Positions 5,795-54,419 of a DNA stretch of 64,000 bases are shown here, piece by piece. Each line of letters opens with the position of its first letter. Within the stretch, counting starts at the first letter, position 1. The notes under the pieces were generated by a model, which did no database searches, had not been told where the DNA came from, and saw nothing but the letters and a program-made list of their open reading frames with translations. Both the position numbers and the translations under genes were made by a program. Source of the DNA: Eledone cirrhosa (taxonomy: Eukaryota); the NCBI GenBank assembly GCA_964016885.1, contig OZ024743.1:172856001-172920000 (forward strand). The letters run 5' to 3'.

Positions 5795-8625
5795 CATCAC
5801 TGTTTTACATCCAATTTTCCACACTAGCATGGGTTAGACGAGTCATCCTGTTGTGGGTAATGCCAGGTCAGGTGACCATGTCTTGCTGTAGAAGTCAAGC
5901 CAAAACCATGTCTTGGTTTTGGCTTGACTTCTACAGTTGGATGCCCTTCCTAACACCAACCTTATTTAGTGAGTACTGGGTGCTTTTTGTCATGACCACT
6001 TTACAATGGGAGGGTGTGGGGGCATACTGTCTATATGCTTTAGCTTCGGCTTGTACCTGTGGGAAGTTGGGTTTTCTGTATTACTGTGTAACGCCAGAGG
6101 TCATGGTCCTGTGTCATCACCTTTGAGAGGTGCAATTGGGCAAGATTGGCTTTTTTCACCTCATCCCAAGTCTTCTTGGGTCTCCCCAGTCCAAGGCTTC
6201 CATCGCCTTTTAGCGCTCTGCACCTTTTTATGCAGCTGTCATCCTTCATACGCATCACATGTCCATACCAATGTAATCTCCTCTCCTGCACACAGCATTT
6301 GATTCCTCTTATGCCTAGTCTCTCCACAATTTGTTTATGCTTTGCTGTTCTCGTATATTACTATTACACATGCAAGCTTCGTTTCTTTCCAATCTACGCA
6401 CAACGCCCAGGTTTCACTACCATGTAACATTGCTGTTCATATGCACACATCATACAGTCTGCCTTTCATTTTGAGGGAAAAGCCTTTTGAGGCTAGCAGC
6501 TCCCTTTCATCCTGTTCTTACACTAGCTACTATACTTTCAGAACACTCACCTCTACTGCTAATTTGGTTACCTAGGTAGCAGAAGCTGTTGACTGTTTCT
6601 ACTGAGCCCTGCCAGAATTTGGTAGTTCTTGTTTCCTGTGGTTGTTTGTTGCTTACTATCCTGATGCAATTGCTACATGTAAAGTCTAGTCTTAACTAAA
6701 CTTCCTGAGATCCTACTGCATTTGGGGCAGGGGATGGAATTTCTACCTACACCTTTCCTACATACCGAGCAAAGCCATTCCCTGAGGGGATCTGGGTTCT
6801 GTTTCCTCTTCTACTTACGAGGATCTTAGTCTGTCAGGTTGACTGTGAGACCCTTTCTAGGCCCTACTACCATGTTTGGAATTTCTTCTCTAGTTCCACC
6901 ATAGATTCAGCTATAAGTGTAACATCATACAGAAGTTCCCATGGCTGCTGGTCAAAACTCCTGTTATAGTCTGCAATACAATAATTAACAGGAGAGGGCT
7001 AAGAACAGAGCCCTGGTGGACACCAACCTGTATGCTAAATTCCTCGCTATAGTCATTGTTAATCCTAACTTTGCTGACTGCTCCCCTATACATGGCTTGT
7101 ACAGCTTACATAAGCCATTCATCTACTCCTAGTTTTCTAAGAGCCCACCAGATTATAGCACAGGGCACTGTCAAAGTATTTTTCCAGATCAACAAATGCC
7201 AGGTAGAGCGGCTTACTTTTAGCTTGGTTCTTTACCTGTAACTGCCTCACAAGGAGGAGAGTATCCGTGGTGCTTTTGGCTGGCACAAACCCAAACTGCA
7301 CTCATAAATTTACCCGGTCCCCAATCAACTGTGCTATAACACTTTGTTACTCTGGTACATCAGCTTTATACCTCTATAGTTTCCTCTATCTAGTCCATCT
7401 CCTTTACCATTGTAGCAATAGACAATGATGCTGCTCCACCAATCATTTGGTATGACGCCATCTAGTATTACTTGGTTATGGTGTGACCTACCGACCCAGA
7501 TGCTTTCAGCATCACGGCAGCTATACCCAATGGACCGGTTGCCTTCATATCTTTAATTGCCGTACTTACTACACTGATGCTGACTTGTATTGTTGGGCCC
7601 TCTATGGGATCCACTTGGGGTAGGGTCTCTTTCTCCCATGCATTTTCATTCAGTAATGTTTCATAACGGCTCTTCCACGCAGCTTTCTTCTCAGTACTTG
7701 AGGCTAAGTACACCTTTATCATACTGAACACATTTCTCTCCAATGACATCACAATTTTCTCTAACACACTGCCTCGCAATCCTGAACACCACCTGTATCT
7801 GGTCCTCATGCTGCAAAACATGCTTGAATATTTTATCCTTTGCTTCCCTTCTAGCTAAGTATACTTGTCGCCTAGCTTCCTCCGTTCTTCCATTGTTTCT
7901 ATGCCTGTCTCTTAGACTTAATTGCCTCATCTACCTTATTGTTCCACCACCATGTCACTCTCTTTCTCCCCGTGGTCTTGCTCCAACCACAAATCTCGTC
8001 TGTTGCCTTTAGTAAGTTATTTTTGTGGAACTCCCAGTGCTCTTCTATATTGAATGTCTCTATCTGTTCTTCTTTACTGTCATAGGCATCAAGATATCTT
8101 TAAATCTGTTACTGGCTGGTGGGGTCTTTCAGCTTCCAGATCTTTCTTCTCCAAATTGCCTTCTGTTTCCAAGTTCCTCTAGTTTTGGCAATAAGGTAGC
8201 TGACAACTAAGTTACGTTGTAATGTACATTCCTCACCAGGGAAGGCCTTTGTGTTTACAACCATCTATCTCATCCTCTGATAAGGATAAAATCTATCTGA
8301 CTAGAATGCCCCCTGGATCTATAGGTGATCAGGTGGTTGTCGGGTTTTTGAAGTTTGTGTTCATATCAACATGTCATTGGTGTTGCAGAATTCTAGAAGC
8401 CTGTAACCTTCTTCATTTCTTGTGCCAAACCTGTAGCCTCCATGGATTCTGTGGAAGCCATCACAGTGCTTCCCAATGTGTCCATTAAAGTCTCCTGGAA
8501 TGATTAGGAAGTCTTTTTCGTTTGTTAGGGCAGTAGTGTCCATCAGGGACTCGTAAAACCTATCCCTAAGTTCATCTGGCAACCCAGATTGGGGTGCGTA
8601 AGTGGATATAATTGTAGCTATTGTT
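5795..8625 (-). mobile_element. RTE-clade LINE, 5'-truncated and degenerate
   Basis: APE (YAPQ, GDFNGHIG), RT (GVHQGSVLSPLL) and C-terminal RLHWYGHVMR fragments, plus a (GAT)n tail. Confidence 0.9.
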
Positions 8626-9141
8626 TTATTTATTATTGTAGCTAATTGTTAGATCGATACCTATCATGGCGTAAATCGTTGAAAATTCGGGGGAAATAAG
8701 CAGATACAAGTAGGCATATTCGACAAGGAGAATGTGTGAGAATTTCGAAGACATCCACCGAATTTGAATATGTAGAGAGTTGGAGAGAGAAAGAGAGGGA
8801 GAATATACCAACATGGTTTATTTCGAAAATAGACGTAATATACGTTGGGAAAATAAGCCAATAATGTATACAAAACATTTTCAAAGTGTGAACAGAAATA
8901 CCTGAAAGAAACAAAAAATCCTATGGATGGCTGGGATAGATTGAAAGCTTTACAGATTCATTGAGGGAAACCAAAAAAACCACCTTGATTCTTAGACAGC
9001 CACTGAATGAATGAGTGAAAGAGTAGAGGGAGCAAGATGGAGTGGTTTTGGGATCATTTCGAATAGAGAGAGAGAGAATATACCAACATGGTTTATTTCG
9101 AAAATAGACAAAAGATACTCGGGGAAAAATAAGCAAATAAT

Positions 9142-12440: not shown

Positions 12441-12511
12441 TTATTTCACAATTATAACAATTAGTCCACAGGATTGGATGTTGCTTTTGTTTCTCAGACT
12501 GTAGATTTCAT
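12441..12511 (-). CDS. CENPC: CENP-C-like coding exon 19 (last; cupin end and stop)
   Basis: Acceptor tttgacag, phase 1. Encodes (N)EIYSLRNKSNIQSCGLIVIIVK*. AATAAA overlaps and follows the stop. Confidence 0.88.
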
Positions 12512-13223: not shown

Positions 13224-13314
13224 TTGCAGGAATCATGAAACTGTCCCCTGATGACAGTACCATAGTCTTGCAACCAATTCTTACTTTGACTTCACCATAT
13301 TGCACAAGGAACAT
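13224..13314 (-). CDS. CENPC: CENP-C-like exon 18 (cupin)
   Basis: ttctag/gtatgt splice sites, 91 nt, phase 0 to 1. Encodes MFLVQYGEVKVRIGCKTMVLSSGDSFMIPA. Confidence 0.9.
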
Positions 13315-15668
13315 CTAGAACAATAAATGTAAAAAAAAAAAATCTTTAAATAAGTTAAAAGAAACACTGATACAAAATGTCCCATATGCCTCTGTGTGTT
13401 ACATACCTAGAGAAGTAAATTCTGTTTTTACAGTAATGTTAAATTCACAAAGTTGCATTCATATTTAGTTGTATAGATATCCTCATCATTTAACATCAAT
13501 TTTCCTTACTAGTAAGGGTTGGTTGTATCGTCACAACCAATCAGTACTCTAGTCCAGTCTTGTACCTCAAGGTGGTGATCTGGGGCCTTGACATGTGATC
13601 CTATATTTCACTAAGTGCATTTTATCATGGCACCAACACTAGGGAGGTTTTCATGTCTCCCAACCCTTTATCTGGCAAGTTTTCTGTGCTTGGATGCTCT
13701 TCTTATCATCAACCACTGAGCTCCTCTGCAAGATTGGAACGTCATTTGCCTATCTGAGGAAGGAGCCTCGCGAGGTGGGGTGATTATTGCAGCAGGAGTC
13801 ACTGGTCATTGTCCGTGGAAATGCTTTTGTCTGCGGGGCACCGTCCCTACACCGCCCAGAGCCCACTTTTCCTCTCATTTATAGCCCTTTCCTCTACTTT
13901 CTCATATAGCCAGATCTGCCCTTCTTTACCTCTTCTCATTACTTAATTTTGGTTTTATCCTTTTTTTTTTTCATATTTATGTAATCATCAATGCTTTTTA
14001 AGTCAACTTTGTGAATATTTGTAATGTTATTTATGTAACTGTGAATAATAAAAACTTTATCAAGTGTACTGGGCGTGTTTATCGTGTAGATCTCCAACAT
14101 TAGAGAGGTTGTTATGCCCCTCACACAACTAAAGTCCTCTTAACCCTTTTGGTATGGTTTCTACAACAGCGAGTGCTTCCTACCACCAACCACTTTACAA
14201 GGTGTACTGTGTGCATTTATCATACTAGAGGGCTGTCGGTGATGGACTCTACTGAAGAGCCATCTCTACCTTACGAATGGGTTTGGAGAGGTGATCTCTG
14301 GCAGAGCGGGAGATACTATGTATGACAGCTGCTAAGGGGGTATGACTGGTGTGCCAAGGTTTCAGATGGAGGGATCTTGAGTAGAGAGGGAAGGTGAATG
14401 GTAATCTGGATTGAATAGGGGTGGTGGTGCAGTAACAGTGAGGATAGCTACTGGTGGGGGAATTTGTGAATGGGTCAGGTCATGTTTTAGGCTGGTAGAC
14501 AGGTCTTCACCAGCACAACATGTCATAAATCCTCATGGTCCTCTGTTATCTCTGTTGTGACGTTCAGCTTCATTGCGTAAATTATCCTTAGAGACAGAAA
14601 AAGTGCATTTTATCCTGTTACTAACATCAGAGAGATTATCATGTCCTTGACACAACTGAAGAGTCTTCTCAGCCTTTTGTTTGGCATTTATATGTTCTTC
14701 CAATCTTGACAAAACTGGCTGTCACCTGTAACTATGTTTTCTTTTATAGACTTTTTTCCAACTGAAGACATTGATTGTCTTTTGGAGCAGCACTAATAAT
14801 GACATAAGATGCTGTGTTCATGACTCTAATCATTAAATCATGCTTATATTTGAATATTGGTTCACTTGTTCTATGTATGAAGCCTATAATAGTGCATATA
14901 TATATATACACACACACATTTTAAGAAAATTAATGAAGTTTCATTTACAAGCATTTAGGTTTTAATTATGTATCAACCTGTTAAATGGATATGTGGTGTG
15001 TGCATGTGTATTCAGTATTTTTAGGGCTATCTTGAACTACATATTTTGAACTTTCACTTAAGATCGGAAAATGTGATTTGAGAAAGATTTTAGATGTTAT
15101 TAAACACTGTTCAAGTGACTACATAGATGCACGTTAGTTGGTCTGTATTGTTCTAAGTAGAATTTTGTTGTACCCTCTGAGCAAGGCTCACAACACATCT
15201 TGTTCCAGTTTACCTGACTTATCCTTATCATTTAACATCTGTTTTCACTGCTAGGAAGTAAACGATCTCTATTCTCTAATTTATGTTTCGTGGTAGAAAA
15301 GTCACCATTCTGTCTGCAAATATCAAGGGTTCCAATAACTAAAATATTCTACCAATGCAAATATGGAAAAATGAATTTAGAAAAAAACAAACAAAAACAT
15401 ATCATTAGTGATGAGGTTCTCTTATGCTGGTTCTTGCAGTCATGATCAACAAAGTTGAACATCTTGACTTTCGATGGTTGTGATTTACATGGCAGACAAA
15501 CACACTCCTACAAACACTCACTCATTTATAAAAGTGTTGAAATCCTGGGGAAAAATGACGAAACATGATGTATTCACCAAAATGACATTTAACATCTTTG
15601 TTTCAACTGCATAAAACGAATAAGTGTGATTTTCAGAGCACAGACACAGACAGACAGAAAGTACTCAC

Positions 15669-15841
15669 CTCTTCATTATGAGTTCGTTTTAGTGGTTTAT
15701 AAGCTCCTTTCTTCAGACAGATCAACCCCATAAATCCGTTCTCTGAATTCAAGCAACAGCAATAAATAATATCAAGTGCCTTTGATGGCTCTAATGCCTT
15801 GTTACTTATATACTTATAAGTCTGTTTGGGTGCAAAAACAT
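15669..15841 (-). CDS. CENPC: CENP-C-like exon 17 (cupin N-half)
   Basis: tggcag/gtgagt, 173 nt, phase 1 to 0. Encodes VFAPKQ...GFMGLICLKKGAYKPLKRTHNEE. Confidence 0.88.
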
Positions 15842-16689
15842 CTGCCAGAAACCAAAACAAAAGAAAACTTTAATAAATAAGGAGACAAATACTTGACTCA
15901 CATCACATCCTCCACTCCAATTCCACTGCCTTTCATCATCCTGTCTTCCCCAACATGAAGTCTCCCAAACATTACTTCCTTCCCTATCACATTAATTGTT
16001 GTTGTACCCATCACACTCATACTAATCACTTTCAACCTCTCTATTGTTGATGCCAAGATAAAATACACACATTACATTTTTTAAAGTTGTTGGTGAATAA
16101 ACACAGGGTAGCCTTTTCTTGTCAAGGACATGACAATTTCTCTAGTGCTGGGTACCATGATAGGATATACTCTGTAAAATGTGTTAAGTGGTGAGTGAAA
16201 GGAAGGACATCCATTTAGCATATATATATATATTATATTATTTATTTATGTTCATACTTGGAACAAAGGTACTACCTAATGTTTCAAGGACTTAATTTGA
16301 CCATACCTCCAAAAAATAAGAGGCATCAAAATATTGACCTTTCTTCTAGCACTAATGCGAGTTTATAAAATAGCGTTAAAAGTAAATTTTGCCAAGAACA
16401 CGTGTTTATGAAAGATAACATCATAAAACAAAGGGAAATAACTCCAAGCTTTAAATATGAATCGAGATGAACCACGTATTTGTATACTATAGCAGAAGTA
16501 TTGTATTATGTAGTGGAATGTAATATAGAAATGGTAAGATTTAATAATTGTTTCTACTTTTTGGCACAAGGCCAGCAATTATCCAGTGCATTACTGGTAA
16601 TATATTGAGTATAGTAGTGTAGAAAGTGTATTGTATTATGTAAGTGTGGAAAGAGAAAGAAAAGATATAATGGAAGTATATAAATCCAA

Positions 16690-18045: not shown

Positions 18046-18833
18046 TAAAATAAAAACTAACAGTATAGAGAGGACTCTTAAGTCTGGTCAGACAACCACT
18101 CTAGTGCTGGTTAAACAAATAATACTAGTCAACACTGTAAAGTAGTTGGTGATAGTAGTTGGCATGTAACCAGAAAATTTACCAAAAACACAATAACATT
18201 ATAGATAAATGTGAGTGTGTATACAGTGCTAACACTAAACATTTTAGTGCTGTGCAGAGGAGTGGAGCAGCTAACCCAACCACGTGCAAGAACCCCCTCA
18301 ATCATCAAGCAATCATTTTCCATTTCAGGTACAGAAATCTGCTAGTGAATGACATAATTACCACTGTCAGGTAGCATGTCTCAGGGCTGTCACAATGAGG
18401 GGACTATGAAATGCAGATCTGGAGAAAATGTGTACTGTGTACAAGTGAGATGGAGGGAACCTCAACCAAACATAAGATTTTCTGGGTAAGAAATGATGAC
18501 AGGGTAGGTGGAGTAGACATTCAACTAGCTGAGACATGGAGAGAGAAGTAGTTGAGACATGGAGAGAGAAGTAATTGAAGTAGTTAGAGTAAGTTACAAC
18601 AGAATTATCAAGAATAATCATCCCACCCTTGCAAGCAGGGAAAAGCGGATGTAAAATGATGATGAATCATATGCAATAGAATGACAACAATTATCTCTAC
18701 CTATATACCTCAATCAGGTAAAGAATAAAAGGACCGATTATCTGAGGAACTCCTACAGGCAACCACTGCTACAGATGACAGAGACCTCATCATTATGATG
18801 TGCAGGGGTGTGTATGTGTAGTATAAAACTTAC

Positions 18834-18947
18834 TTTTCACTGTATGTTTCTCAGAGGATGATCTTAATGCATGTTTCTTTTTGTGTTGTAAAGGAGGTGA
18901 CATTTCTATCAGTGGGAGATCACCTTGTGATACATTTGAAGTTTCAT
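18834..18947 (-). CDS. CENPC: CENP-C-like exon 16 (repeat exon 6)
   Basis: cctcag/gtaagt, 114 nt, phase 1-1. Encodes ETSNVSQGDLPLIEMSPPLQHKKKHALRSSSEKHTVK. Confidence 0.82.
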
Positions 18948-20531
18948 CTGAGGAAAAGAATTTAATATTTAATACAGTTTACAGATATTTCCGAAAATAA
19001 TGAACAACAAAGGAAAAGAAAGAAAAAGGCAGAAAGAAGAGACAAAGGAAAAGAACTCAGACATGATGGACACCTACCTGCATATTAAATTCCTAAATTT
19101 GCTGATAGCATTATTGTCAGTGTCTTGTAAAGATCTCACAAAAGATTCTTCTACCGTTTATTTATGATGGACAACCACACCAAAAAGCATGAAACATTGT
19201 CAAATGGCTTCTCCATGCCAACAAATTCTTAGTAAAATCTCCTTTTTACTTGGGTAAGAATTTCCTCTGTAATTACTTCACTGACGAAGGCATACTGATG
19301 CCTACATCCAGCACAAGAGCTAAGTGCAACTCATTTAAGCTAGTTATCTTCCTTGATAAGGCTGATTTAAAAAAGAAAATTACATATTTTCTTGCAACTG
19401 GTGAAAAGCATCACTGTTTACAAGTTTCTAATGGGGCCAATCACCAACAGTGACAAAGGAGTGCTGGATAACTCGATTTAGAACATCAGAAGGCTTAGTT
19501 GAAGAAAACCAGTTTTTCTATTTTCTCACAAATATTTATTTCTTTTCCCAATACACATCAGCAAAAGATACATGGCGACACATACACATACATACATACA
19601 TATATATTTTTAAATACAAGGGAAACCATTGTATATTTTTCTAACATTCTTATGTTGCCTCCAGCTTAAGTTTTCAACCCAATGTATATGCTATATCAAG
19701 ATACTTTTGTTGTTTGATAGTATAAGTCCAAATTTCACTATCGTAAAGTAGGATTAGTTATATTGTAACTTGGAAGAGTCTCAATTTGGAGGAATTTGGT
19801 ATGTTAGAATGCCAGTTTCTGTCAAGCTTATTACATGCTGATCACACCTAGGCTTTTCTAGCTTTGAAATCTTTTCCATAATCCGTGATCCAAGAACCAA
19901 GGTACTTAAAATCGTTTATAATGAAGAATGTAAGTCGTTATAGTTTTTAGTAAGGTTAGATCAGAAGGCATTAAATAGACAAACTCCATTACAAGTATGT
20001 ACTTCATTTATTCTTGCTTCACACTGTGAAAGTCATTTTGCCTGTATTTCCATGTGTGAGATACGACAGGATATGGCGTGTCGAAGAATCGACATCTTGA
20101 CGATAGCGGGTTTATCTGGAGACTGATCTTCTGACTTAACTTCCGTTCTCTGGTCTAAGTAGTCCAGTTACTTGTATCGCTACACCGAAGGTTTTGATTG
20201 GCTCACACTTCAGCCAATTTACTTCCGTAACATTTTTCTTCCGCCGAAGGAAAATACATTTAATTACATATTACTGCTACATCACCCCCTGCTTAGGCTG
20301 AAGGCCGACAGAGAAAAAAAGTGTAGCAGTTGCAAGAAAGAAAAAAAAATATGACAGTAAATATATAATAAACAATGTCATTTCACAGGAATGTCTGCGT
20401 TTTGTTTCAGAGAAAAAGAGGAACATAAAAACTGAGCAGCAGAAATAGTCCAAAGTTCACATTAATTAATGCATTTAATATAAATACAAGAGAGGACAAG
20501 AACTCAAAAAGCTTGCTTGATATAGCATAGT

Positions 20532-23500
20532 TCATGTATACAGAGTCTTGCAAAGCTTTTTGGGCCAATGTACTCGGCGACCACTACGTGTGGTGGTGAC
20601 ATATGTAGGTGTAGGTGGAGAAGGTGTGTGCAATGTTGCATGTGTAGCGTGTGTTGGCTGATGCAGAGTATATGTAGGGGGAATATGGGGCTCTTGTGTG
20701 AGAGTGTCTGTAAAGGCCCGTTTCACCCTATCGATGGATACAGTCTCTTTTTTACCACCAATGACCAGAGTGAACAGTTTATCTGTGCGTGCAAGCACAC
20801 GATAAGGACTGGTGTAAGGTGACGTTCTGTAGAAAGACGTGGGTCCACGAAGCAATGTCTTTTGGGACCGAAGACTTTGTCTGTTGCCGAGGGTTCATAG
20901 GCGGAAGATTGTCAAAATAAGATCGCAGTCTGTTCACATACAGAGCTGGATCTGTTTCAGGTAAATCCATTGGGGTCAACATCTGACCCGGCAAAGATAT
21001 AGGTACTCTGTAAACCAGTTCAGCTGGGGAGTATCCTAGATCCTCCTTGATAGCTGCACAACAGCCAAGAAGGACAATTGGTACATACTCGCTCCATTGC
21101 TGTTGATCCGGATAAGCGCGCAGTGCGGCTTTCAATTGGCGGTGGAAGCGCTCTATCATTCCGTTCGAAGCTGGATGATAGCTAGTCGTTCGGATGCGCT
21201 TAATTCCCAGGATCCTTGAAAGTTCTCGGAAGAGATGGGACTCAAACTGTCCACCACGGTCCGTGGTGACAGTGGTTGGAACTCCGTAACTCGATATCCA
21301 ACCCGATACTAGGGCTCGCGCTACAGATTCCGCCGAAATGTTACTTAAAGGAATGGCTTCAGGCCAACGTGTGAAGCGATCAATACAGTTCAGGAGATAG
21401 GTAAATCCTTGGCTGACTGGCCATAGTCCAACGAGATCTATATGGACATGACTGAACCGAGTTTCTGGAGTGCTGAAAGTTCCGAGAGGTGCGCGGATGT
21501 GTTTGTGCACCTTTGACTTCTGGCAGGACAAGCAGGAACGTGTCCAGGCAGTGATGTGATGCCTCATATTCGGCCAGAAGAATCTAGCCGAAATGAGCTT
21601 CACTGTGGTAGATATTCCAGGGTGTGCTAGGCCGTGCAAGGTTTCGAAAACTGCTCGAACTAGAGGACGAGGTGAATCCGTCGAGGTGTCACAAATAATC
21701 TGTGTGTCCGAAGTGGGCAAAGTTTGTTATGAAAATTTGCCAGTTGCAAATTCAGGAGACGAAAGATCCAAGGTGTCCAGGGGTGGCTGTTCTGTGGCCA
21801 TCCGTTGAAGGTCAATATCCGAAGGTGATGACAGGGAATTGATTGGGAGGCGAGACAAGGCATCTGCCGCCGCATTCTGCTCACCGGAGATGTGTCGGAT
21901 ATCGCTGGTAAATTGTGAAACGAAGTCCAAATGACGAGTTTCGCGAGGTGAATATTTATCCGGCTTAGAACACAGTGCGAACGTAAGCGGACGATGATCG
22001 GTGTAGATCGCAAATTGACGACCCTCCAGTGCATGCCGAAAGTGTTTCACTGAGAGGTACATAGCCAGGAGTTCACGGCCGAACGTGCTATATCGTGTTT
22101 CTGCAGGTTTCAGTTGTCTCGAGAAGTACACGAGAGGTTGTAATTGTTGTTGGTGATGCTGTTGCAAAACTGCACCTACAGCTGTGCCCGATGCATCAAC
22201 GACCAGTGAAAACTGGGCACCAGACACAGGATGTGCAAGCAAGTGATCTCTCCGCAAGTTTCTGCTTCACTTCATTGAAGGCTTTTAGCTGACTCGTGTC
22301 CAGTGTGATGGATTCATCTTTCCTTTTCCTGTTACGTAACAGGTCAGACAGAGGAGACAGGAGATCCGCACAGTGTGGGATAAAACGTCTGTAGTAGTTC
22401 AGCAGACCAAGGAAATGTCGTAGCTGGCGAAGTGAAGTGGGTGGTTGAAGGTCTTGCAGAGCTTTCACTTTGTCAGGTAGTGGTGATATTCCCTCTGGGC
22501 TGATGACATGGCCCAAGAAGACAAGTGAAGATACACCGAAAACACATTTCGCCGGGTTAATTCGTACTTGATACTGCTGAAACAGCTAAAAACAGTAGAC
22601 GGAGGTGAGTGACATGTTCCTCGGGTGAGGCACTTGCCACGAGAATGTCATCAATGTAGTTATACACGAAGTCCAAATCGTGCACAACTTCATCCATGAA
22701 ACGTTGGAAAGTACTGGCTGCGTTTCGCAAACCGAAAGGAATAGCCAGAAATTCGAACGCTCCGGAAGGAGTTGTTACGGCAGTTTTAGGTATATCTGCC
22801 GGGTTCATTGGAATCTGGTGGTAAGCTTTGACGAAATCCAATTTGGAGAATGTCTTACATCCATGAAGCGAAGACGCGAAATCTTGTATGTGTGGGATCG
22901 GGTAGTGATCGGGTACCATCATCGCGTTTAACCGGCGAAAGTCCCCAGTGGGACGCCAATCACCGGAACACTTCGGAACCAAATGCAAAGTAGCGGCCCA
23001 CGGACTTGAGGATGGGCGTATGATCCCCAGCTGTAGCATGTGGTTAAATTCAGCCTTCGCTGCTTTCAATTTCTCCGCAGGGAGGCGGCGAGGGCGAGAA
23101 AATACAGGAGCGCCAGAAGTTTCGATATAATGTTTTGTGGAGTGAGTAGGCTTGCTCACCACAAAATTCAAATTTGTCAATTCTGGGAAGGAATTTAGAA
23201 GCGATTGGAAAGGGTCCTCTGAAGCGGCGATGAAGAATACCGGGCTGATAGATGAGACAGTAGATCTCAAACCCGGAACAGAGAGTTCCGTATTAGCATC
23301 CAACAACCGGCGTCTGTGCATATCCACTAAGAGGTTATAGTGGTGCAGGAAATCCGAGCCTAGAATAGGGTAAGGCAAATCAGCGACCGTGAAAATCCAC
23401 GTGAAGTCTCTTCGCAATTCCAGGTTCAAAGAACGAGAAATCTGACCATATGTGGAGATAGGAGAATGATTTACGGCTTGCAGAGAAATGGATGAAACTG

Positions 23501-23621
23501 GCGGCTTCTCTTTGAGAAGTTTTAGCGGCCATATGCTGCAAGCAGCGCCTGTATCCACTAGACATCGAGCTTGGGAAAACGTGTCAGTTATGAAGAACGC
23601 ACGATTATTTGGGAGTGTCAT
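20532..23621 (-). pseudogene. Gypsy 2 pol, several frameshifts
   Basis: ORFs 22557-23621 (PR/RT), 22196-22516, 21727-22257 (RNH), 20779-21720 (IN) and 20532-20855. Confidence 0.93.
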
Positions 23622-23638
23622 AGGAGACTGTGCCGTGC

Positions 23639-24397
23639 TCAGGTCTCCTGAAATCTGTTTCCCTGGAGGGAAAACGAACAGGGCTGTTTACAAGAGCATG
23701 CCGCTGCGCCAAAACGGCGGCGTGGCGAGGGCAAACGGCTCTGGAAGCGACGTCTGGGCGATTGAGCCCTGGAGGTACTCAATTTTCTCACCTCTTTGGT
23801 GAGTTGCTCTATGGCTTGAAGTATTGCCACAGACGCAAGTGAGTGATCTGTGTGGACGGCAGCTGCTGGAGAGAACGAAGAGACCGCAGCCGGTGACTGA
23901 GGTGCAACATAGGAGGCAGGGTTTCCAGTGAAACTTATAATTTTGTCGGCCGAAGCCGCTAGCTGGTCGACTGTGGTAGTCTCCATCATAGGTGCTAAAA
24001 TCGCCTGAACACCGGGCGGCAGCCTTGAAAAGAAAAGCTGTTTAAAGAGGGCGCTGTCAGCTGGGGTGTCTTCCGCCAGCTCTTTCATGCGACGCAGAAG
24101 CTGTGTGGGCGTCCGATCACCCAAATGTTCATCATTGACGAGTGTCTGGAATTTATTCTTCGCGGACAATGTGGTCCGCCGCAAAACCTCGCGTTTTACG
24201 CTCTCATAGGAGGCTCCAGGGGCAGGATCAGTTATTAAATCTTTAACAACCTTCGTCAATGCCGCCGGGAAAGCACTCAAAAGCATGTGTAATTGTCTGA
24301 CTTCAGACGTAATGTTGTTCGCGGTAAAGTAAGACTCTATTTGTGCGAACCAAACATTGACATCGCCGGCAAACGCTGGCAATGAGGTGCTACCCAT
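23639..24397 (-). CDS. Gypsy 2 gag
   Basis: [10 protein letters not shown] and [21 protein letters not shown] slippery-type heptamer lies near the 3' end. Confidence 0.9.
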
Positions 24398-26617
24398 CGT
24401 GAATTATGGTATTCCGTAATAGGAAAATGCAGGCCAAGAGGAATATGTTAAGAAATGTCAGAGAGGAAAATGTTAAGAATTAAAAAAAAATTCTTATATT
24501 TTTCAAAAAGGCGTTGCCTTCAAATCAAATTGGCTGGCAAACAAACGCAGAAGACGTATAATGGCCATAACGCTCCGGAATACAGGCACAAAAAAAAATT
24601 ATAATGCACGATGGAATAATTTACCGATAATTTTTTTTTTTTTTGTTTTTTTTTGTTAATAATGTCGATACAAAATGTGTTTGTGCATGCAGGCAAATGA
24701 TAAATATAATGATAACGAAATAATTGTTCTAAACAACAAAACGTTCAGTTTTTTTTTTTTCTTTGTTACAGCATTCTTTCTTTCTTTCATATTTGTTGTA
24801 CCAAAATGCTTGTTTGAATCACATCGGCCTCACCATTTATAATGAAGAGTGTAAGTCGTTATAGTTGTTAGTAAGGTTAGATCAGAAGGCATTAAATAGA
24901 CAAACTCCATTACAAGTGTGTACTTCATTTATTCTTGCTTCACACTGTGAAAGTCATTTTGCCTGTATTTCCATGTGTGAGATACGACAGGATATGGCGT
25001 ATCGAAGAATTGATGTCTTGATGATAGCGGGTTTATCTGGAGACTGATCTTCTGACTTAACTTCCGTCCTCTGGTCTAAGTAGTCCAGTTACTTGTATCG
25101 CTACGCCGAAGGTTTTGATTGGCTCACACTCCAGCCAATTTACTTCCGTAACATTTTTCTTCCGCCGAAGGAAAATACATCTAATTACAAAGGATATATA
25201 TTACTGCTACACGTTAACTCTCTTAATTCCACTTCCATCTTGTGCTTTAAGAGTAGTTTGAGCAAATGAGAGATGTATTGTCTTGCTTTCATTGAGATGG
25301 AGACCAACAAGAAGAGTTGCTTCTTGGAAAGCCATGAAATGTTGGACATTCTCCAGGAAATCTGCTAGAAAAGCAATGCCATCTGTAAGATGTTGAGAGG
25401 AATGTTTTGAGCTCAAGAGAGATTTTACAGGGATGTCCCTCTCAATGGCGTCTAGAGAGATTCTAAGAGAGCAGTCTAGTGCTATGATGAAAAGGAATGG
25501 TGCAGGTGTGTTATTTTGAAATACACATGCAAAGATGTCAAAGAATTCAGTTAGGCCACCAGGAGTATTTATATTTGCATTGGTGTTTTGATAGTGTCTC
25601 AATTGCTTCCAAATTTGGAAGAGGATATCTCTATTTATGCTGTTGATAAATTTACAAAATAAGAGCCATTTCCTTGATGTAATTCTTTATTTTTTCAACT
25701 ATCCTTCTTAGGGCTAGAAATTGAACAAGAGTAGATCTTTCATGACTGAAATCATTTTCGTTGATTTCGGATGAAACAAGTCAGTTTAGAATTACTTTCA
25801 TGGAACAAATTAGTTTAGAATACTTTGTTGTAAATTTGGCATCAATGTGATTCCCAGCCATTTGTTTGGAAAAGAGACGTCACCCTTCTTAAGAATGGGA
25901 ATTATGCCAGCTTTAAACAAAATTGGGGTGGGGGTGGGGGGTGAGAAAGTGCACCAAATATCTCATTACATATTGACAGAAGAACTAAGGCCAGTTTAGG
26001 GTCTTTCCAAATCATATTGGGAATATTGTCAAGGTTTGGAGGTTACTTGTTCTCAAGGGGATTACAAAATTGATTTCACTCAAAGAAAAGTCTGTTATTG
26101 ACATGTCTAATGGAGGTGACATCTCTATCGGTAGGAGATTACCTTCGACAGGAGATAGTACACCCAAGAGACCCTTAATGTGGTTGACCTAGTTTCTCTG
26201 TGTGCTTGCTGAGAACCCCCTTTGATAATAGGGGAAAGCTTTTCTTTCCTACCAGTTATTTTATTTACTAAGGTCGACTGCAGGTTGTACTGGACTTACA
26301 GCCTTGACCAAGTAGTAGTCCCAGATGCAATATGACTGACCTGACTTCAGCCACTTTCACCTTAATTTAATGAGTTGAGCATTTAATTAATTGAACAACC
26401 GAATGCTCATCATCAAATCAGAGATTCTATCATGTGTTTTGGTTATCAAACATGAAAGTAAAAGCACTCGTATTTAGAGTTTATTCATTAATTCAAGAAA
26501 GCGACTAAATACTTTTGCTACTCCAAGTTTCCTGTTAAAAGAAACTCAAAGGAGTGATAAAATGAAGCTTCCTCAGCTTTAAATAAATAAATATGAATAT
26601 TTAAAACATACTCTTAC

Positions 26618-26707
26618 TTTCTAATGCATGTTTCTTACTGGGTGATGGCTGAGGTGTTTTGTGTTGTAAAGGTGAAGATTTGTCTTGTAGTACATCTACA
26701 GGTTCAC
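26618..26707 (-). CDS. CENPC: CENP-C-like exon 15 (repeat exon 5)
   Basis: ccttcag/gtaaga, 90 nt, phase 1-1. Encodes EPVDVLQDKSSPLQHKTPQPSPSKKHALE. Confidence 0.82.
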
Positions 26708-27160
26708 CTGAAGGAAAGAATATCATTTAACACAGTTACAGAGATTTCTGAATATAATGAAAAACAATAATAGTAACAACAAAACAAAAAAGGAAAGAAA
26801 AAAGAAAGAAACAAAAATTGTTCACATTCCATTGTGGTTAACACCAGACTGTACAGATATATAAAAATACAAGAGAGTAGAGAGATTACAATATCTCCAA
26901 CCCATGCTAGCATGGAAGATGGACGTTAAACGATGATGATGATGATCCACCACTGCATATCAGAATGCGCTGTGTGAAGCTATATTTTGAAAAATAGATG
27001 CATGGATTGATCTTATTTCTTTGACTCACTACCTATGTGTCATATAAGCCTGCTCAATCATGACGGCCCCATTGCTGGACAATAACAGCAATTAGTCTCT
27101 CCATAGTCTAATGATTAAACTTACAATACAAGGAAACATAGTTGTTCAAGTTTAACTTAC

Positions 27161-27259
27161 TTTTCCGTTTCAATGTGCCTTGTTTCTTATTTAGTGATGA
27201 CTGGGAATTTTTCGGTGGTAAAGGTGAAGATTTGTTTTGGGGTATATGTGCAGGCTCAT
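27161..27259 (-). CDS. CENPC: CENP-C-like exon 14 (repeat exon 4)
   Basis: ccttcag/gtaagt, 99 nt, phase 1-1. Encodes EPAHIPQNKSSPLPPKNSQSSLNKKQGTLKRK. Confidence 0.8.
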
Positions 27260-27834
27260 CTGAAGGAAAGAATTTAATATCTTATAGCTACTTCTGAAAA
27301 CAACAGCAACGAGTAAAAAGACAGAAAAATAGAAGAGAGGTAGGAATAAAGCAAGCAAAGAAGAAACAAAAAGTGAAATAATAACGAAGTAAAAGCAAGA
27401 ATGTAAAAATCGGAAGGCGAGGGAAAGGTAAGCTTCATAACAGATTTATGTGAAAAACACCAAAAGCTGAATGTTTAGAACAAAACTACATATATGATCA
27501 AAATATCCAGCATTTTAACATTACAACAGAGATGATGACAAACTGTGGACCATACCAAAGTACTGTATACATGGGTGCCACAAGTCTGTTTGATGAAAAT
27601 ATATGTGGGGTCAAGAAAACCTGTGAAACAAAAGGTTGAGAAGACTCTTCATTTGTGTCAAAATTATGATAACCTCCCCTAGTGTTTGTGACATGATGAA
27701 ACACACCTATGTGTCATATAAGCCTGCTCAATCATGACGGCCCCATTGCTGGACAATAACAGCAATTAGTCTCTCCATAGTCTAATGATTAAACTTACAA
27801 TACAAGGAAACATAGTTGTTCAAGTTTAACTTAC

Positions 27835-27933
27835 TTTTCCGTTTCAATGTGCCTTGTTTCTTATTTAGTGATGACTGGGAATTTTTCGGTGGTAAAGGTG
27901 AAGATTTGTTTTGGGGTATATGTGCAGGCTCAT
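27835..27933 (-). CDS. CENPC: CENP-C-like exon 13 (repeat exon 3, identical to exon 14)
   Basis: Identical 99-nt copy with intact splice sites. Confidence 0.78.
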
Positions 27934-28439
27934 CTGAAGGAAAGAATTTAATATCTTATAGCTACTTCTGAAAACAACAGCAACGAGTAAAAAGACAGAA
28001 AAATAGAAGAGAGGTAGGAATAAAGCAAGCAAAGAAGAAACAAAAAGTGAAATAATAACGAAGTAAAAGCAAGAATGTAAAAATCGGAAGGCGAGGGAGA
28101 GGTAAGCTTCATAACAGATTTATGTGAAAAACACCAAAAGCTGAATGTTTAGAACAAAACTACATATATGATCAAAATATCCAGCATTTTAACATTACAA
28201 CTAAGATGATGACAAACTGTGGACCATACCAAAGTACTGTATACATGGGTGCCACAAGAAAACCTGTGAAACAAAGGGTTGAGAAGACTCTTCATTTGTG
28301 TCAAAATTATGACAACCTCCCCTAGTGTTTGTGACATGATGAAACACACCCAGTACACTCTGTAGCGTATTGGAATGCATATAAGCGAGAAGACATGAAG
28401 GTACTTGCAAAAATATGAAATAAAATGTGAAAATCTATG

Positions 28440-29193: not shown

Positions 29194-29289
29194 TTTTATT
29201 TTTCAATGTACATTTGGCAGTTGGTGATTGTTGAGACTTTTTGTGTGGTAGACGTGAGCTTTTTTCTTGGGAATCATCTGAGGGCCCAA
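29194..29289 (-). CDS. CENPC: CENP-C-like exon 12 (repeat exon 2)
   Basis: cttgcag/gtaagc, 96 nt, phase 1-1. Encodes GPSDDSQEKSSRLPHKKSQQSPTAKCTLKNK. Confidence 0.8.
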
Positions 29290-30344: not shown

Positions 30345-31110
30345 AAGTTTGTTTATAACAGTTGCTGGAAATGGTCAAGATGATATGGCTTGATACAGCT
30401 GATGCAGAGGTTCACTTTACACTATTCACATCCTGTTTTTGGTTCCCTTCTAATGTTCTGTTTGGAACTTTGTTGGACACTTGTTAAGTCATTCAGACTG
30501 GCCTTGGTTGTCAGCAGTGCTATGGTCTTCTTATCATGCTAAGCTGTTGCTATTAGATTCCCCTTATGCATTTGAATCAAGTCACCTTGTTTTTACAATT
30601 CGGCTGAAGTGATAGCTTTTGGCAAGCCTCTTCTATGTTTATGTACTGTGTTGCAAGCATAAGTCCCATTCTGTCAATGTTCCCCAAACACACAAAAAGA
30701 AATTATCACAATACAGGTGGTGGTTTTGTCCCAATATATCTCTTGCGAGGTCCTTAACTCTTTCTCCAAGTCCTTGCTCAGGCTAATTTGAAACTTTCCC
30801 AATATAAACTTGGCAGTTTATAACTGCATCCACACTTTTATCCCATGTATTGTAGGCTTCAACAGAATGTACTGTTTAAAGACCAGATGTCCGATGAAAG
30901 CAATTGTAGCATTGTCAATGGATGTTTCACAGTGTAGGTTATACTATGACTTCAGATTTTAGCGTGTGTGTTCAATAAAAGACTGTATATGGGTAAGTAC
31001 TTGAAGCATAACTTCCTACTTCAACCTATCACTGAGCATCAGAATTGAACATACTTCAAATGGGATTTAACTGCTGTAGTGAAACATAAATGTCTACAAG
31101 CAGGATTAAT
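30345..31110 (-). mobile_element. Degenerate piggyBac (PGBD-like) transposase fragment
   Basis: Manual translation gives SIDNATIAFIGHLVFKQYILLKPTIHGIKVW, HHLYCDNFF and ACNTVHKHRRGLPK. Confidence 0.85.
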
Positions 31111-31229: not shown

Positions 31230-32330
31230 AATTAGAGAAAAAGTGGAAAAGAAGCTTGCACATGTTCTGTATCATGAGAATCAGAGGCGTGAACAGTTCC
31301 AGAGTACGAGACAATGTGCCAGAAAAATCCATGTTATAGTTGGAGAAAAGTGTGTCCAAAATTGCAGTGGAGCACTTGCTTTGATTGATGCCAAAGAGAA
31401 AGAGACATGGAAGTCCTATTACAAGAGACTGATGAATGAAGGATATAAATAGGAGAGTAAAAACCTACCCCATATAAATCCAACAATGGGACCAACCATA
31501 AAAGTTGACAGTAGTGATAGACAAAGCAATTACAGATATGAAGGTAGGGAAGGCAACTAAACTATCAGGCAGGCTAAGATGCTGAAAATATTCAGCATGG
31601 TGTGTTACAAGATAGAATCAAATGGTACAAGATGGTGTCATATTTGATGACTGTCATAGTAGTATCATTATAAGCTATTAAAGAGCAATGGAAACACACT
31701 ACAGAAACATTAAGTTGACGGACCATGTCATAAAAGTTAGTGAAAGGTTTATAGCATAACTAATTAGAGACAGAATCAAGCTAGATGAGATGGAGTTTGG
31801 TTTTATGCTAGGTAGGAGTACTACCAATGTCCTCTTTCTTGTGAGACAACTGTTGGAGAGGTACATAGCTAAGAGTAAACCTTTACTTGGCATTTGTAGA
31901 TCTGGAGAAAGCCTTTAACAGGGTCCCACGCTCTGTAATCTGGTGCGCACTTAGGAAGCTAGGTGCAGATGAATGGCTCGTAAGGACTGTGCATGCAATG
32001 TATAAAAGTACAACCAGCAAGGTGAGAGTTGCCAATGAGTACAATAATGAATTGGATATGCAGGTGGGTTATCCACAAGGGTTCAGGGTTTATCATTGTC
32101 TTTAAGGTCATCACTGAGGAATTTAAGACTAGCACTTCATGGGAACTGCTATACGCTACTGAACTAGTCCTTATAACTGAATTTGTGAGAGTTAGAGGCA
32201 AAATCCCAGACATGAAAGAAAATCTACAATTGAAAGGCCTAAAAGTAAACTAAGCAAAAATAAACATCTTAATAAGTAGGAAATAGGACAGGAAGCTGCT
32301 GATAAAAAAATGAACATAAAATGATGATGA
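31230..32330 (+). mobile_element. RTE LINE fragment
   Basis: AFVDLEKAFNRVP and WELLYA motifs. Confidence 0.85.
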
Positions 32331-32339
32331 CAAACTTAC

Positions 32340-32420
32340 TTTTAAATGCACATTTACTAATCTGAGGCTTTTTGTGTTGTAAAGGTGAAGATTTGTTTTG
32401 AGGCCCATCTGAAGATACAC
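32340..32420 (-). CDS. CENPC: CENP-C-like exon 11 (repeat exon 1)
   Basis: ccttcag/gtaagt, 81 nt, phase 1-1. Encodes VSSDGPQNKSSPLQHKKPQISKCAFK. Confidence 0.82.
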
Positions 32421-34152: not shown

Positions 34153-34344
34153 CTGAAGATTTAAAAAGAAAAATATTTCATTATTTTCAAAAACTTAATT
34201 ATTTCTTCATTTATTTTCCTCTCTCTGTCTATATATACATCATAGTAGAAGCTATAAACCACTTCTATGGGTCCTTCCTGTGACTGGAATAGGCTTACTG
34301 GTACCCCTGTACATCCTCTATAAACTTTGAACAAAATCGCTTGT

Positions 34345-34930
34345 GGGATTTGAGCTCCCTGAGTTGCACTCACTAACACTTTAGTTTTGGCTAAGTTTAC
34401 TTTAACACCTTTTGATTTTAAATTCTGTTTCCATAATCAGAACTTATTTTCTAGGTCTTTAATGCATTCAGCTATAAGGACCAGATCATCTGCATAGAGA
34501 AGTACCCATGGGCAGCCGGTCTTAAATTCCTGTTATAGCTTGGAGAACTATAATGAATAGTAGTGGGCTAAGAACCAAACCCTGATAGACTTGTACCTTG
34601 AATTCCTCACTAAACTCATTTCCTACTATCACTTTACTGACAGCTTCTCTGTACATGACTTGCACTACACTCACCAACCATTCTTCTACATCTTAATTTC
34701 CTTAAGGACCACCAGGTAATAGATCAGGGAACTCTGTCAAAGGCTTTTTCTAGGTCAACAAAAGCTAGGTAGAGTGGCTTATTATTGGCTAAGAACTTCT
34801 CTCACTAAAAAAAGGGCACTTGTACTTTTTCCAGGCATGAAACCAAACTGCATCTCGTCTAATTTGACTTTTTCTCTAATTAGCTGTGCTATAACTCTTC
34901 CTATCACTTTCATAACTTGGTCCATTAGTT
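34345..34930 (-). mobile_element. RTE LINE RT fragment
   Basis: QFGFMPGKST, VDLEKAFDRVP and LYADDLVL on the minus strand. Confidence 0.85.
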
Positions 34931-35047
34931 ATATATATATACGCACACACATATGCATCAAGTACAGAGGTGTTAGGTTACTAGGGATACAGCAAATATA
35001 ATAAAAAGACAGAAGACAATAACAACACAAGACATTTTGAAAGTTAC

Positions 35048-35097
35048 CTTTTTGATATTTGCTTTTTCTTCATGGGTGACATATGTTTCAACAAAAC
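35048..35097 (-). CDS. CENPC: CENP-C-like exon 8
   Basis: aaacag/gtaact, 50 nt, phase 0 to 2. Encodes VLLKHMSPMKKKQISK. Phases match both neighbours. Confidence 0.75.
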
Positions 35098-35159
35098 CTG
35101 TTTCCAGTGGAATATATAAGATGACAACTTAGATAAAAAGAATATAATTTATTCACCCA

Positions 35160-36390
35160 TCATCATCATCATCATCATCATTTAGCATCTATTTTTCCAT
35201 GCTAGCATCAGTTAGACAGGTTGTCCAGTTTGAGGCAAGTTGGGTCAGGTGACCATGTCTTGCTTGGTTTCTATGGCTGGATGACCTTCCTTACACCAAC
35301 CGCATTTACAGTGTGTACTGGGTGCTTTTTGTTGCGACTCCTACATGACCACTTTACAGCGTGGGCTAGGTGCTTTTTGTTGTGACTCCTACATGACCAC
35401 TTTACAGTGTGGGCTGGGTGCTTGTTGTTGTGACGCCTATATGACCACTTTACAGTGTGGTCTGGGTGCTTTTTTGCTGTGTTGCCATCACGACCACTTT
35501 ACAGTGTGAGCTGGAAACTTCACTGGACGTATGCTGCAGCCTCTTATCATGAGAGATGTATAATAGGGTGGGGTGGGTCTTCTGTATCACTGCATAACGC
35601 CAGAGATCTAGGTCCTGTGTCATCACATTTGAGAGGTGCAATTAAGCAAGGTCAGCTTTTATCACCTCATCCCAAGTCTTCCTAGGTTTCCCCACTTCTA
35701 GTGCTCTGCACCTTTTTATACAGCTGTCATCCTTCATACGCATCACATGTCCATACGAATGCAGTCTCCTCTCCTCCACATTGCATCTGATTTCTCTTAT
35801 ACCTAGTTTCTCTCTCAGTTCATTTATACTTTGCTGTTCATGTAAGTTACCATTACACATCCATTAGAGCATGCAAACTTCATTCCTTTCCAATTTACGC
35901 AAGTCTTCTGCACACAGCACCCAGTTTCACTACCATGTAACATTGCTGTTCGTATGCATGCATCATACAGTCGGCCTTTCATTTTGAGGGAAAAGCCTTT
36001 TGCAGTTAGCAGTGGTAGTAGCTCCCTGAACTTCTTCCATCCTGTTCCCACCCTGGCCACTGTAATTTCAAAACACCCACCCTGGCCACTGTAATTTCAA
36101 AACACCCACCCCGCTGCTAATTTGGTTACCCAGGTAGCAGAAGCTGTCTACTGCATCTACTGAACATTCCAGGAAGTTGATAGTGCTTATTTCCTGTGGT
36201 CGTTTGCTGCTTACTATCCTGGTGCAACTGCTACATGTAAAGCCTACATTCTTAGCTAAAGTTCCTGAAATCTCACATCTCTTGTGTACCCATAGTTTGC
36301 ATTTGAGACGGAGGATGTAATTTCTACCTACACCTTGAGCAAGGCCATTTCCCCGAGGAGATCAAGGCTTTGTTTTCTGTTCTATTTACT
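35160..36390 (-). mobile_element. RTE LINE 3' part, with tandem repeats of about 50 bp in the 3' UTR
   Basis: GWKKFRELLPLL and GHVMRM. About four GACCACTTTACAG units at 35300-35510 and a (GAT)n tail. Confidence 0.88.
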
Positions 36391-36393
36391 TGG

Positions 36394-36431
<38 letters not shown>

Positions 36432-37710: not shown

Positions 37711-38539
37711 TATAATATATCCCTAGTCCACATTTTAAAGTGGTCATTTTTGGTGCCACAACAAAAAGCACCCAGTCCAAACTGTAAAGTGGTCGTGTAA
37801 GTGTCACGACAAAAAGCACCCAGCACATACTGTAAATGTGACTGGCATTAGGAAATGCATCCAGCTGTAGAAACCAAGCCAGAAACAGTTCTGTATGAGT
37901 AACACATGGTCACCTGACACAAACTTGCCTCAAACGGGACAACCGTTCTATCCATGTTAGCATGGAAAATGGACATTAAACGATGATGATATATATAATA
38001 TACATATATATATATCGAACCTTACTGCCGAATTGTTGATTTGAGAAATGTAATGTATGCGGTTCATTTTTTTGTCGTCTCTCCATGTTCATAGTCCATT
38101 TACCTACCAGTATTTAAACTGTTATTATCTGTTATATATTCGTTTAACTTAGAATCTAATCTTTTCAATAATATGGATAAATCTGTTGGACCTTTCTAAA
38201 AATAATCTTCTCGTAAACTTTCCCATTTCCCTCCCCACATACCACCATTGCTATTTGGTCCAATCATAATTCAGCGGCTTATAAGGTTTCTCTTACCAAT
38301 CTCTATCACAAAGCTACCGTCTTGGTTATTACTTCTTAAGTTTAGACCTCGTTGCTTTTCGATGTGCTAGATGGACTAGAGAATTTGGAGAGTCTGAACA
38401 ATCTGAACACTCAATGACAATGTCAAAGATAAAGATAAACTCACCTCCCGCTGCCAGACGAGAATGCAAGGACTCCTCTTTATTTCAGACACAGATGGCC
38501 AACACCCCTCCCTGCACCTCCAACCCATCCCTTCCACCC

Positions 38540-49140: not shown

Positions 49141-51449
49141 GCATCTGTGATACTTTTACCTAGTATAAATCCAAACTGCATCTCATCTTGGTTAACTCAT
49201 TTCCTAATCAACTGTGCTATAACTCTTTCTGTGACCTTCATAACTTGGCCAACCAGCTTAATGCCTCTATAGTTTTTTTCTATCTAGAGCCTCACTTTTG
49301 CCCTTGTAGCAGTTGACGATGCTGTGGCTGCACCAGTCATTGGGTATGACACCATTTTGTATTACTTGGTTTACAATGCAGGAGACTAGTGGGTGTGGCC
49401 CACAAGTCCTGATGCTTTCAGCATCTCAGCAACTATCACTGAGTGTCCAGCTGCCCTGACTGTCTTCATATCCTTGATTGCCTTACTTACGATACTACTG
49501 CTAACTTGCACAGCTGGTCCCTCTGTTGGGTCAACATGTGACAGACTGTCTTCATCCATGCATTCTCGTCATTCAGTAATCTTTCATAGTGGCATTCTAC
49601 CTTCTTTTCAGCATCAGTGAGGGCAAATTTGCCATAATCATTTCAGACACACTTCTCCCCACCAACATCACAATTTTCCCTGTGATTCTGAACACCTTAC
49701 ACATCTTTGATCTTCCAGCTGCAAAACATGCTTCAACATTTTGTTTTCTGCTTCCCTTCTTGCAAGGTATACTTGTCGCCTAGCTTCTCTTCTAGCATTC
49801 TGGTAATTTACAGCAATTACTTTGTCTACTCATTTTTCTGCTACCAAAATCCCTACTCTACCCAGCCCATTGTCATTTACCACCCAGAAAAATTTGTAGC
49901 ATCGCTTTTTTGCCCACGAGAAATCAAGCTGACATTCCCCTCCATTTAGTCTCTTGTACACAGCACACACTGATTTTCTGTCATTCAAGCATCTCTGCTA
50001 TCTCTCCAGATCTTCTTTCATTGTGTCTACATTGAAGTTTTGGAGTTCAGTGGAAGAGTGAGAGTGATGAAAACTTGGTAGGGGTGTGGGAGATGAGTTG
50101 ATGTTGGTTTTCCATGTCTGAAATAAAGAGGCTGGTAGGTTCATATACATCATTAGGAGTGCTCCAGCTTAGTAATCCATATGCCATACAGAACAACATC
50201 AGACCCATAACAACTGTACTAGAAGTAGCAGTGTTTATTGCAATAAAGATTGAGTTAGCAGTTACATGTTTGTGCTGCTGTGTTTTGATTGGTCTATGTG
50301 GCAATGGTAGTGTTAGTAGGAGGGGAATGGGAATATGACGAAAGAGAAAGGAAAACAAGATTACTTTGTTTGATGAACATCCGTAGAGTAAATATTTATT
50401 AATACAAATTAAAAGTTTAAGCAAAAAATTTCTGCTTTCACTCCTAGTGGGTTCATCTGAAACGGGGAAGAATCAATCTGTAGATGTAAAAATAAATATT
50501 TCAAAAATGTTACGACCAAATATTGCCTTTAGAAAACAGGAAGACATAATGGTAGTATGTGAGGACGTTCTCTTGAGATCAATGAAATGTATGCAAGGAG
50601 AATTACATCATTATGTGGAACGAAAAGAACAATTCTTGCTAAGAAAAAATCAGGAGACTAATATTATTTTTAGAATAGCCAAATAATTAAACAAAAATAC
50701 TGAAGGTTTAAGCTCATATATAAGTATGCACTGACCAGAGTGGATGGATGTGTAAACAAAAATATAGTGTATAAAAATTATATACACACTTATACATATA
50801 TACACATGCATGTGTGCACACAAATGTATATATACACATACATAGATATATATGCATATACATTCAATATATATATATGTACATACATATACATGCGCAG
50901 ACACCTGCATACATATATACACATACATGCACATCTCCGTCTATGGAGCTCGTTCATCCATACTTATTATTTATTAATTACTTTCTTTTTTCCCCACAGT
51001 AACTTTTTTCTTTCTTCCCGTGACTCTTTTTAAAATTCTTTCTTTCTCCTGTTTGCTCCTGTCTGTGTAGCTCATTCATACATATTATTTATTAATTACT
51101 TTCTTTCCTTTGAATCGACTTACTTTTCTCTCTCCTATTTACCTCCGTCTATGGAGCTTGTTTATTCATTACTTTCTTGTTCCCTTCAGTAACTTCTTTC
51201 CTACTGAGATCTTTGAATCAACTCTTTTTAAAGGAATCCCATTTCACCCCCCCCCCCCTAGTTATTTGGACCAAACAAATTCCAACAGCACATAGTATGT
51301 TTTCACTAATCCAAACTTCTAATTGCAAAAGCCACTACTTCGGCTACTACTCCTCCTAAACATTATTATAGACCTGGTTGTAGCTCTGTATGATGAATGG
51401 GCTACAGAGATAGAGAGTTGGAGCACTCATAAAGATGAAGATGGATTCA

Positions 51450-54285: not shown

Positions 54286-54419
54286 ATATATAAAAATTGA
54301 GTATAGTTAGATTGTTCTTCACTACCACATTATGATGTATATCATCAGCATAGTATCCATACTGTCCATTGGAATATAGTGTTAGGCTGTAATACAAAAA
54401 CGTTTTATATAGTTTATGC

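Follow-up and report, generated by a model that had tools for sequence, protein, structure and literature searches.

The entry of transposon sequence into proteins is usually ascribed to exonisation or domestication. Short-range copying by proximal repair-mediated duplication was surveyed in vertebrates in 2009 through insertions of at least 50 bp that interrupt transposons (PMC2671141); in the part of that paper available to us, 824 of 1,136 donors lay within 5 kb, with a peak near 1.2 kb, junctions carried 2–9 nt of microhomology and deletions of 1–15 nt, and 20 acceptors were chimeric, five of them with a second donor 289–3,432 nt from the first. Single-copy donors were required, transposon donors were excluded and Table 2 of the survey lists no exon acceptors, so that, as described there, the survey is blind to transposon donors and coding acceptors and their frequency is unmeasured. 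Among LINE-related cases, the consulted text on non-classical L1 insertions gives sizes of 34–4,410 bp and deletions in 18 of 21 (PMC1920257). At 10 fly breakpoints, the inserted bases had no good genomic match according to the excerpt available (PMC4056370), which suggests that clear templated cases are not the rule.

The locus described here, a patch in the sixth repeat exon (r6) of a CENP-C-like gene, would be a base-resolved case of another route, in which a transposon tract is copied inside an existing exon and keeps the reading frame that it had in the transposon. At 29 nt, the tract is too short for repeat annotation. It would write ten transposon residues into the host protein, inclusion of the exon and hence the coding role of the patch being predicted from the gene model, and it is a single event in a low-complexity region tolerant of change.

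A LINE-like tract in repeat exon 6

The window, by which we mean the whole 64-kb stretch of DNA analysed, holds six phase 1-1 paralogous exons rich in S, K and P, all on the reverse strand: r1 (32340–32420), r2 (29194–29289), r3 (27835–27933), r4 (27161–27259), r5 (26618–26707) and r6, an AG/GT-bounded exon of 114 nt (18834–18947). Where its sisters read NKSS (r1, r3 and r4), EKSS (r2) or DKSS (r5), r6 reads GDLPLIEMSP, and the sister-exon alignment thus bears out the replacement of NKSS that an earlier note on this DNA had pointed out. The same note had matched 18889–18926 in r6 to 26108–26145 in the adjacent intron, a match that also holds: 33 of 38 nucleotides are identical, ungapped and on the same strand, with background similarity in the flanks on both sides (BLASTN E value of 1.2e-7 within the window). 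The runner-up site for the 38-mer on either strand of the whole window reached 23/38, and the top score among 1,500 shuffled 38-nt queries was 27. Random real 38-mers often match well elsewhere in the window owing to its abundant repeats; what is unusual about this pair is that it joins a coding exon to a LINE.

The patch had been put at 38 nt, but its truly foreign part is a core of 29 nt (18895–18923 against 26114–26142, 25/29 identical), and the other 9 nt belong to the junctions and are compatible with the host. For this core the runner-up in the window is 18/29, and 2,000 shuffles top out at 22. On the reverse strand it provides the codons of GDLPLIEMSP (residues 472–481 of the 612-aa gene model), and the putatively LINE-derived segment is absent from all five sister exons. 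A contig of sequencing run X1, which may be the source sample, spans 18676–19945 with no differences and no gaps, which rules out a chimeric assembly as the source of the patch.

A second anomaly lies 15 nt beyond the patch, where 15 nt of r6 (18865–18879) are identical to the end of r5 (26622–26636), again on the reverse strand; these are the only two places in the window with this tract, which replaces the usual middle of r6 and is additional to r6's own end. The matching part of r5 and the LINE donor are separated by 480 nt; the tract may stem from a second template or from an internal duplication of earlier date. In the intron immediately downstream of r6, we also observed a 21-nt exact direct repeat with 23-nt spacing (18530–18573).

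The intronic LINE, direction of transfer and relative age

The putative donor (26114–26142, reverse strand) sits in a decayed LINE in the r5–r6 intron, which has the same strand as the gene, shares 50–55% identity with protein P0006 and is interrupted by a Gypsy element. In the 5' half of the remnant (25212–26292), P0006 is matched at 174 of 347 aligned residues, with 2 stops and 5 frameshifts; the 3' half, beyond the Gypsy element (19613–19916, reverse strand), has 56 of 102, with 3 stops and 1 frameshift. P0006 is a 954-aa endonuclease and RT protein (RVT_1 E value of 1.7e-33, with weak Exo_endo_phos matches), and we take RTE-X to be the clade of the donor LINE. The donor lies in ORF2 between the endonuclease and RT domains, and its region is collinear with P0006 across the donor segment: the 45 residues around it align to P0006 423–467 without a gap and with a score of 70, against 2 for the second-best offset and a mean of -43 (sd 14). 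The layout around the donor recurs in a second relative, L001, whereas P0008 and P0010 fall in the same cluster as P0006 and give no independent support. HMMER searches with the 58-aa donor peptide alone returned no matches, and the text consulted in PMC9252888 contributed no information on family membership. L001 itself is a near full-length LINE relative on a metagenome contig (3,736 nt), with one frameshift near the position of the donor segment.

The LINE ORF context that the earlier note gave to 26108–26145 is therefore confirmed by an ungapped protein-level match to both P0006 and L001, and at this level the segment is not foreign to the LINE family; a foreign segment was the outcome that the note had named as contrary to its reading. 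Because the segment fills a native slot in ORF2 and is absent from the five sister exons, the copying direction that had been proposed, from LINE to host exon, is also supported; by these alignments, the segment is native to LINE ORF2, and the patch is born of the LINE.

The choice of template is less direct. Counted back from a shared serine, the exon reads Leu-Pro, P0006 Ile-Pro, L001 Leu-Pro and the intron copy Leu-Leu. With proline in the exon and in both outside relatives and leucine in the intron copy, either the intron copy decayed later, after it had been copied, or another sequence served as template; that the exon is nearer to active relatives than the intron copy is would be equally in keeping with a donor copy elsewhere. 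A tblastn search located one copy of the donor LINE family in the window; at other places, the longer alignments have 19–35% identity. X1 depth was 5.4 over 25698–26071 compared with 6.2–6.7, near the single-copy level, but rose to 28 in the bin containing the donor and to 21 in that of the RT; depth does not translate into copy number, and related copies of the donor LINE may occur elsewhere in the genome. From the location and strand of the match, the adjacent copy, rather than another copy or a cDNA, was likely the template. A second LINE family is also represented in the window, by numerous decayed copies in both orientations (8000–9100, 31300–32200, 34300–36400, 38300–41300, 51500–57100 and 61000–64000), about 19–35% identical to P0005/P0006 and often ending in ATG-type repeats.

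The element that splits the donor LINE, which the earlier note had overlooked, is an LTR retrotransposon of 5,295 nt on the reverse strand (19917–25211), presumably Gypsy-like, with LTRs at 24838–25211 and 19917–20281 and a 4-nt target duplication at 25212–25215 and 19913–19916. It has a primer-binding-like site and interrupted frames, and related copies are present in the sequencing runs. The LTR pair differs at 12 of 365 columns (3.3%) whereas 4 of 29 positions separate the patch from its donor (Fisher p = 0.023), by which comparison the patch is likely older than the LTR insertion, although rapid exon evolution could inflate the 4/29. Donor and acceptor are 7,219 nt apart today and 1,920 nt apart once the LTR element is removed; with the LTR element as the younger of the two, as this order of events would have it, the distance at the time of the event was about 1.9 kb. 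The divergence of the patch is 14% (95% range 4–32%), and the LINE carries at least 5 stops in 449 aligned codons (frameshifts may hide stops), which in simulation corresponds to about 10% decay, with a range of about 3–30%. On these estimates, the patch may date back to the insertion of the LINE.

A CENP-C-like host gene

Our hand-built model of the host gene, whose identity had escaped the earlier note, has 18 exons on the reverse strand (12441–59651) and encodes 612 aa, with no internal stop and with GT-AG boundaries at 17 of 17 introns. The repeats together span 193 aa, among them 32 S, 32 K and 24 P, and form a low-complexity basic middle region, a trait that is not specific to CENP-C. 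The last three exons (15669–15841, 13224–13314 and 12441–12511, reverse strand) likely encode a cupin domain: the second-last (13225–13314, 30 aa) matches Pfam CENP-C_C (E value of 0.00095; positions 36–65 of 85, 19.8 bits vs a cut-off of 29) and Cupin_2 (E value of 0.00072), both under the curated cut-off, and the two exons flanking it had no Pfam match when searched singly. Pattern scans found no candidate for the 24-residue CENPC motif that fits the splice phases, although an exon may have been missed, and tryptophan is absent from the 612-aa model. At the position expected for the motif, 16320–16360 (reverse strand) reads as basic residues followed by Pro-Leu and Phe-Trp and adjoins repeated sequence; we rejected this motif-like reading, which has no phase-1 acceptor and next to which many contigs pile up (16293). 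Candidate exons at 15214–15313 and 50442–50477 break the frame and were excluded from the model.

Homologue searches with the host gave 148 candidates, none at an E value of 0.001, and a further search gave none; the PDB held no match for the host protein and Atlas no usable match. An acidic stretch in exon 2 resembles, to our eye, the CENP-C N-terminus, for which profile searches gave no support, and we assume that the repeats of the window resemble those of octopus genomes; our literature search for octopus together with CENP-C and the centromere found no paper. We regard the gene as CENP-C-like and as fairly likely to be a true CENP-C. For the predicted open model that lacks the CENPC motif, either an exon was missed, or the motif was lost or diverged.

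A tandem duplication of 674 nt (27031–28378), with a 394-nt exact run, contains exons r3 and r4; either these exons were duplicated very recently or the assembly is in error here. A decayed coding-like stretch between r1 and r2 (30400–31000) gives the impression of a DNA-transposon remnant. Run X4, whose type is not recorded, contains 0.21 of the query words (the exon share of the query being 0.204, or 0.075 without the patch), with depths of 27.6 and 49.4 in two exon-holding bins vs 0–1.5 in five intron bins. No splice joint was among the joints listed for X4, and we take the depth pattern as a hint of expression and do not count it as evidence. Four of the seven sequencing runs listed entered the comparison; two of them, the RAD runs X5 and X6, were dominated by repeats and gave no usable signal at the patch, and no RNA run carrying the sequence was among those listed.

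Talbert et al. 2004 (PMC549713) called the CENPC motif characteristic of CENP-C. As far as the available part of that paper describes it, grass CENP-C shares with the host gene tandemly duplicated basic exons and a poorly conserved middle that precedes a conserved C-terminus; here, in contrast, the gene is from an animal, the CENPC motif was not found in the model, and no transposon patch is described for grasses in that part. If the host is CENP-C, the patch lies in the kind of duplicated region that was reported there to evolve adaptively.

Repair mechanisms and comparison with known systems

At the junctions, 11 nt after CAAG were swapped for 29 nt, a net gain of 18 nt that keeps the frame, where the 11-nt loss is deduced from the sister exons, the empty site being reconstructed from these paralogues and not from an orthologue. 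The 5' junction has the microhomology AAG (18924–18926, reverse strand), common to host and LINE (CAAG in r2 and r5; CAAA in r1 and r3). At the 3' junction (18889–18894, reverse strand), the host CCTTTA faces CCATTA in the LINE (2 nt exact, 5/6 overall). Microhomology of 3 + 2 nt has a chance probability of 0.008–0.013, or 0.024–0.037 if it is 2 + 2, depending on the ancestral base. No poly-A and no target duplication were found at the patch, and the donor is intact, in that the surrounding LINE ORF2 aligns without a gap. The earlier note had suggested priming by TCACCT, which does not agree with the product: this join predicts one proline codon where r6 has two, like the LINE, so the 3' join is placed at CC(T/A)TTA, and TCACCT would be less parsimonious, needing a later 3-nt slip. 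The other two same-strand frames of the tract contain stops, which is the likely reason that the LINE's own frame survived; as 1,291 of the 2,104 LINE 29-mers would have left this gap free of stops, survival was not a narrow filter, and the open frame by itself says little in favour of selection.

From these features, we consider it probable that the patch was copied from the adjacent intronic LINE by microhomology-primed repair after r6 had suffered a break or a stalled fork. Mechanistically, such a lesion would leave a DNA end in r6, this end would anneal by a few bases to the LINE in the intron just upstream, and a short LINE tract would be synthesised before the exon was rejoined, leaving 29 nt in place of the presumed 11 nt of host sequence. 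The route may have been SDSA-like or polymerase-theta-like, and a pre-mRNA of the same gene serving as template would look identical. The 15-nt tract may derive from r5 in the same event, 480 nt from the first donor. A fuller version, in which one multi-template event drawing on the intronic LINE and r5 rewrote an exon of a cephalopod-type CENP-C and selection then kept the decapeptide, seems to us unlikely; if true, proximal repair capture would feed peptides of intronic transposons into a fast-evolving centromere protein without a new splice site.

The main competitor, which we regard as unlikely, is capture of LINE RNA or cDNA at a break, independent of the endonuclease, during the active period of the family; the retrotransposition event may have been the one that placed the intronic copy. 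An internal fragment with no poly-A, no target duplication, a small target deletion and microhomology is what such capture leaves in the accessible accounts of PMC1920257 and PMC5110952; the overlapping ages of the patch and the LINE insertion are compatible with a cDNA template, and the exon retains the family proline that the intron copy lost. However, independent capture does not predict that the sole family copy found in 64 kb should lie in the intron next to the exon, with the same orientation and about 1.9 kb away, and the possible r5-derived tract points to a local DNA template.

The order of exon, LINE and exon could in principle have produced the patch by loss, if two deletions on a tandem unit fused the 5' half of one repeat exon to the 3' half of the next with 29 nt of LINE between them and unequal crossing over placed the chimera behind an intact unit. 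The array does duplicate readily (the r3/r4 units with their 394-nt exact run) and the 5' half of r6 is closest to r5 (17/24), but the other sisters reach 15–16/24, so this is barely higher, and the intron upstream of r6 scores 108 with r2 and 99 with r5; with three events required and a broken exon as the intermediate allele, we find this course very unlikely. As to the earlier choice between templated repair and gene conversion, the junctions look like templated repair, whereas homology-driven conversion between exon and LINE, which would suit an ungapped same-strand tract, is largely refuted by similarity that falls to background outside the tract, with a flanking identity of 2–6 nt, and by the unequal exchange of 11 nt for 29 nt, making it highly improbable. 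Transfer in the opposite direction, out of the exon and into the LINE, or a likeness due to chance or to convergence after an internal duplication, draws on the fact that the segment's place in the LINE rests on the protein level and not on DNA copies from the same genome; against a gap-free slot in ORF2, a segment found in none of five sister exons and shuffles that reach at most 22/29, it is hardly credible.

Microhomology-primed repair from the intronic LINE, the reading we prefer, can be compared with several described processes. The exonisation of intronic transposons, as covered by the sources available in part, likewise brings transposon sequence from an intron to a coding region; unlike exonisation, the patch brings no new splice site and is internal, with host exon on both sides. 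Non-classical L1 insertions (PMC1920257) and class 2 TSIPs (PMC5110952) share a LINE fragment without poly-A or target duplication, a target deletion and microhomology, but the cases in the consulted text are thought to have RNA/cDNA or distant donors and lie in introns, between genes or where they disrupt coding sequence, whereas at this locus a matching copy lies in the neighbouring intron and the reading frame survives. The alt-EJ, SD-MMEJ and polymerase theta pathways, in the portion of PMC7407515 available, show deletion with templated insertion, 1–4 nt of microhomology, iterative rounds and germline scars, as may be the case here; their templates are mostly break flanks and their tracts 1–25 nt, compared with about 1.9 kb and 29 nt at this locus. 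A search of the literature by titles and the openings of abstracts, with few subscription journals covered and supplements outside its scope, found no in-frame transposon capture within a coding exon.

The closest likeness is to proximal repair-mediated duplication (PMC2671141), which, in the part of the survey available, shares a short copy from nearby, an intact donor, no poly-A and an occasional close second donor. On the order of events argued above, the distance of 1,920 nt falls within its 5-kb limit, and microhomology of 3 nt and 2 nt (5/6) with a presumed 11-nt loss falls within its junction features; the tract (29 nt, or 38 nt with the junctions) is shorter than the 50-bp minimum, a cut-off of the detection method and not of the mechanism. 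Proximal repair-mediated duplication is thus a known process, and what is new here, in comparison with the cases described in that part of the survey, is the combination of a transposon donor and a coding-exon acceptor, with a 29-nt tract in frame, in a CENP-C-like gene.
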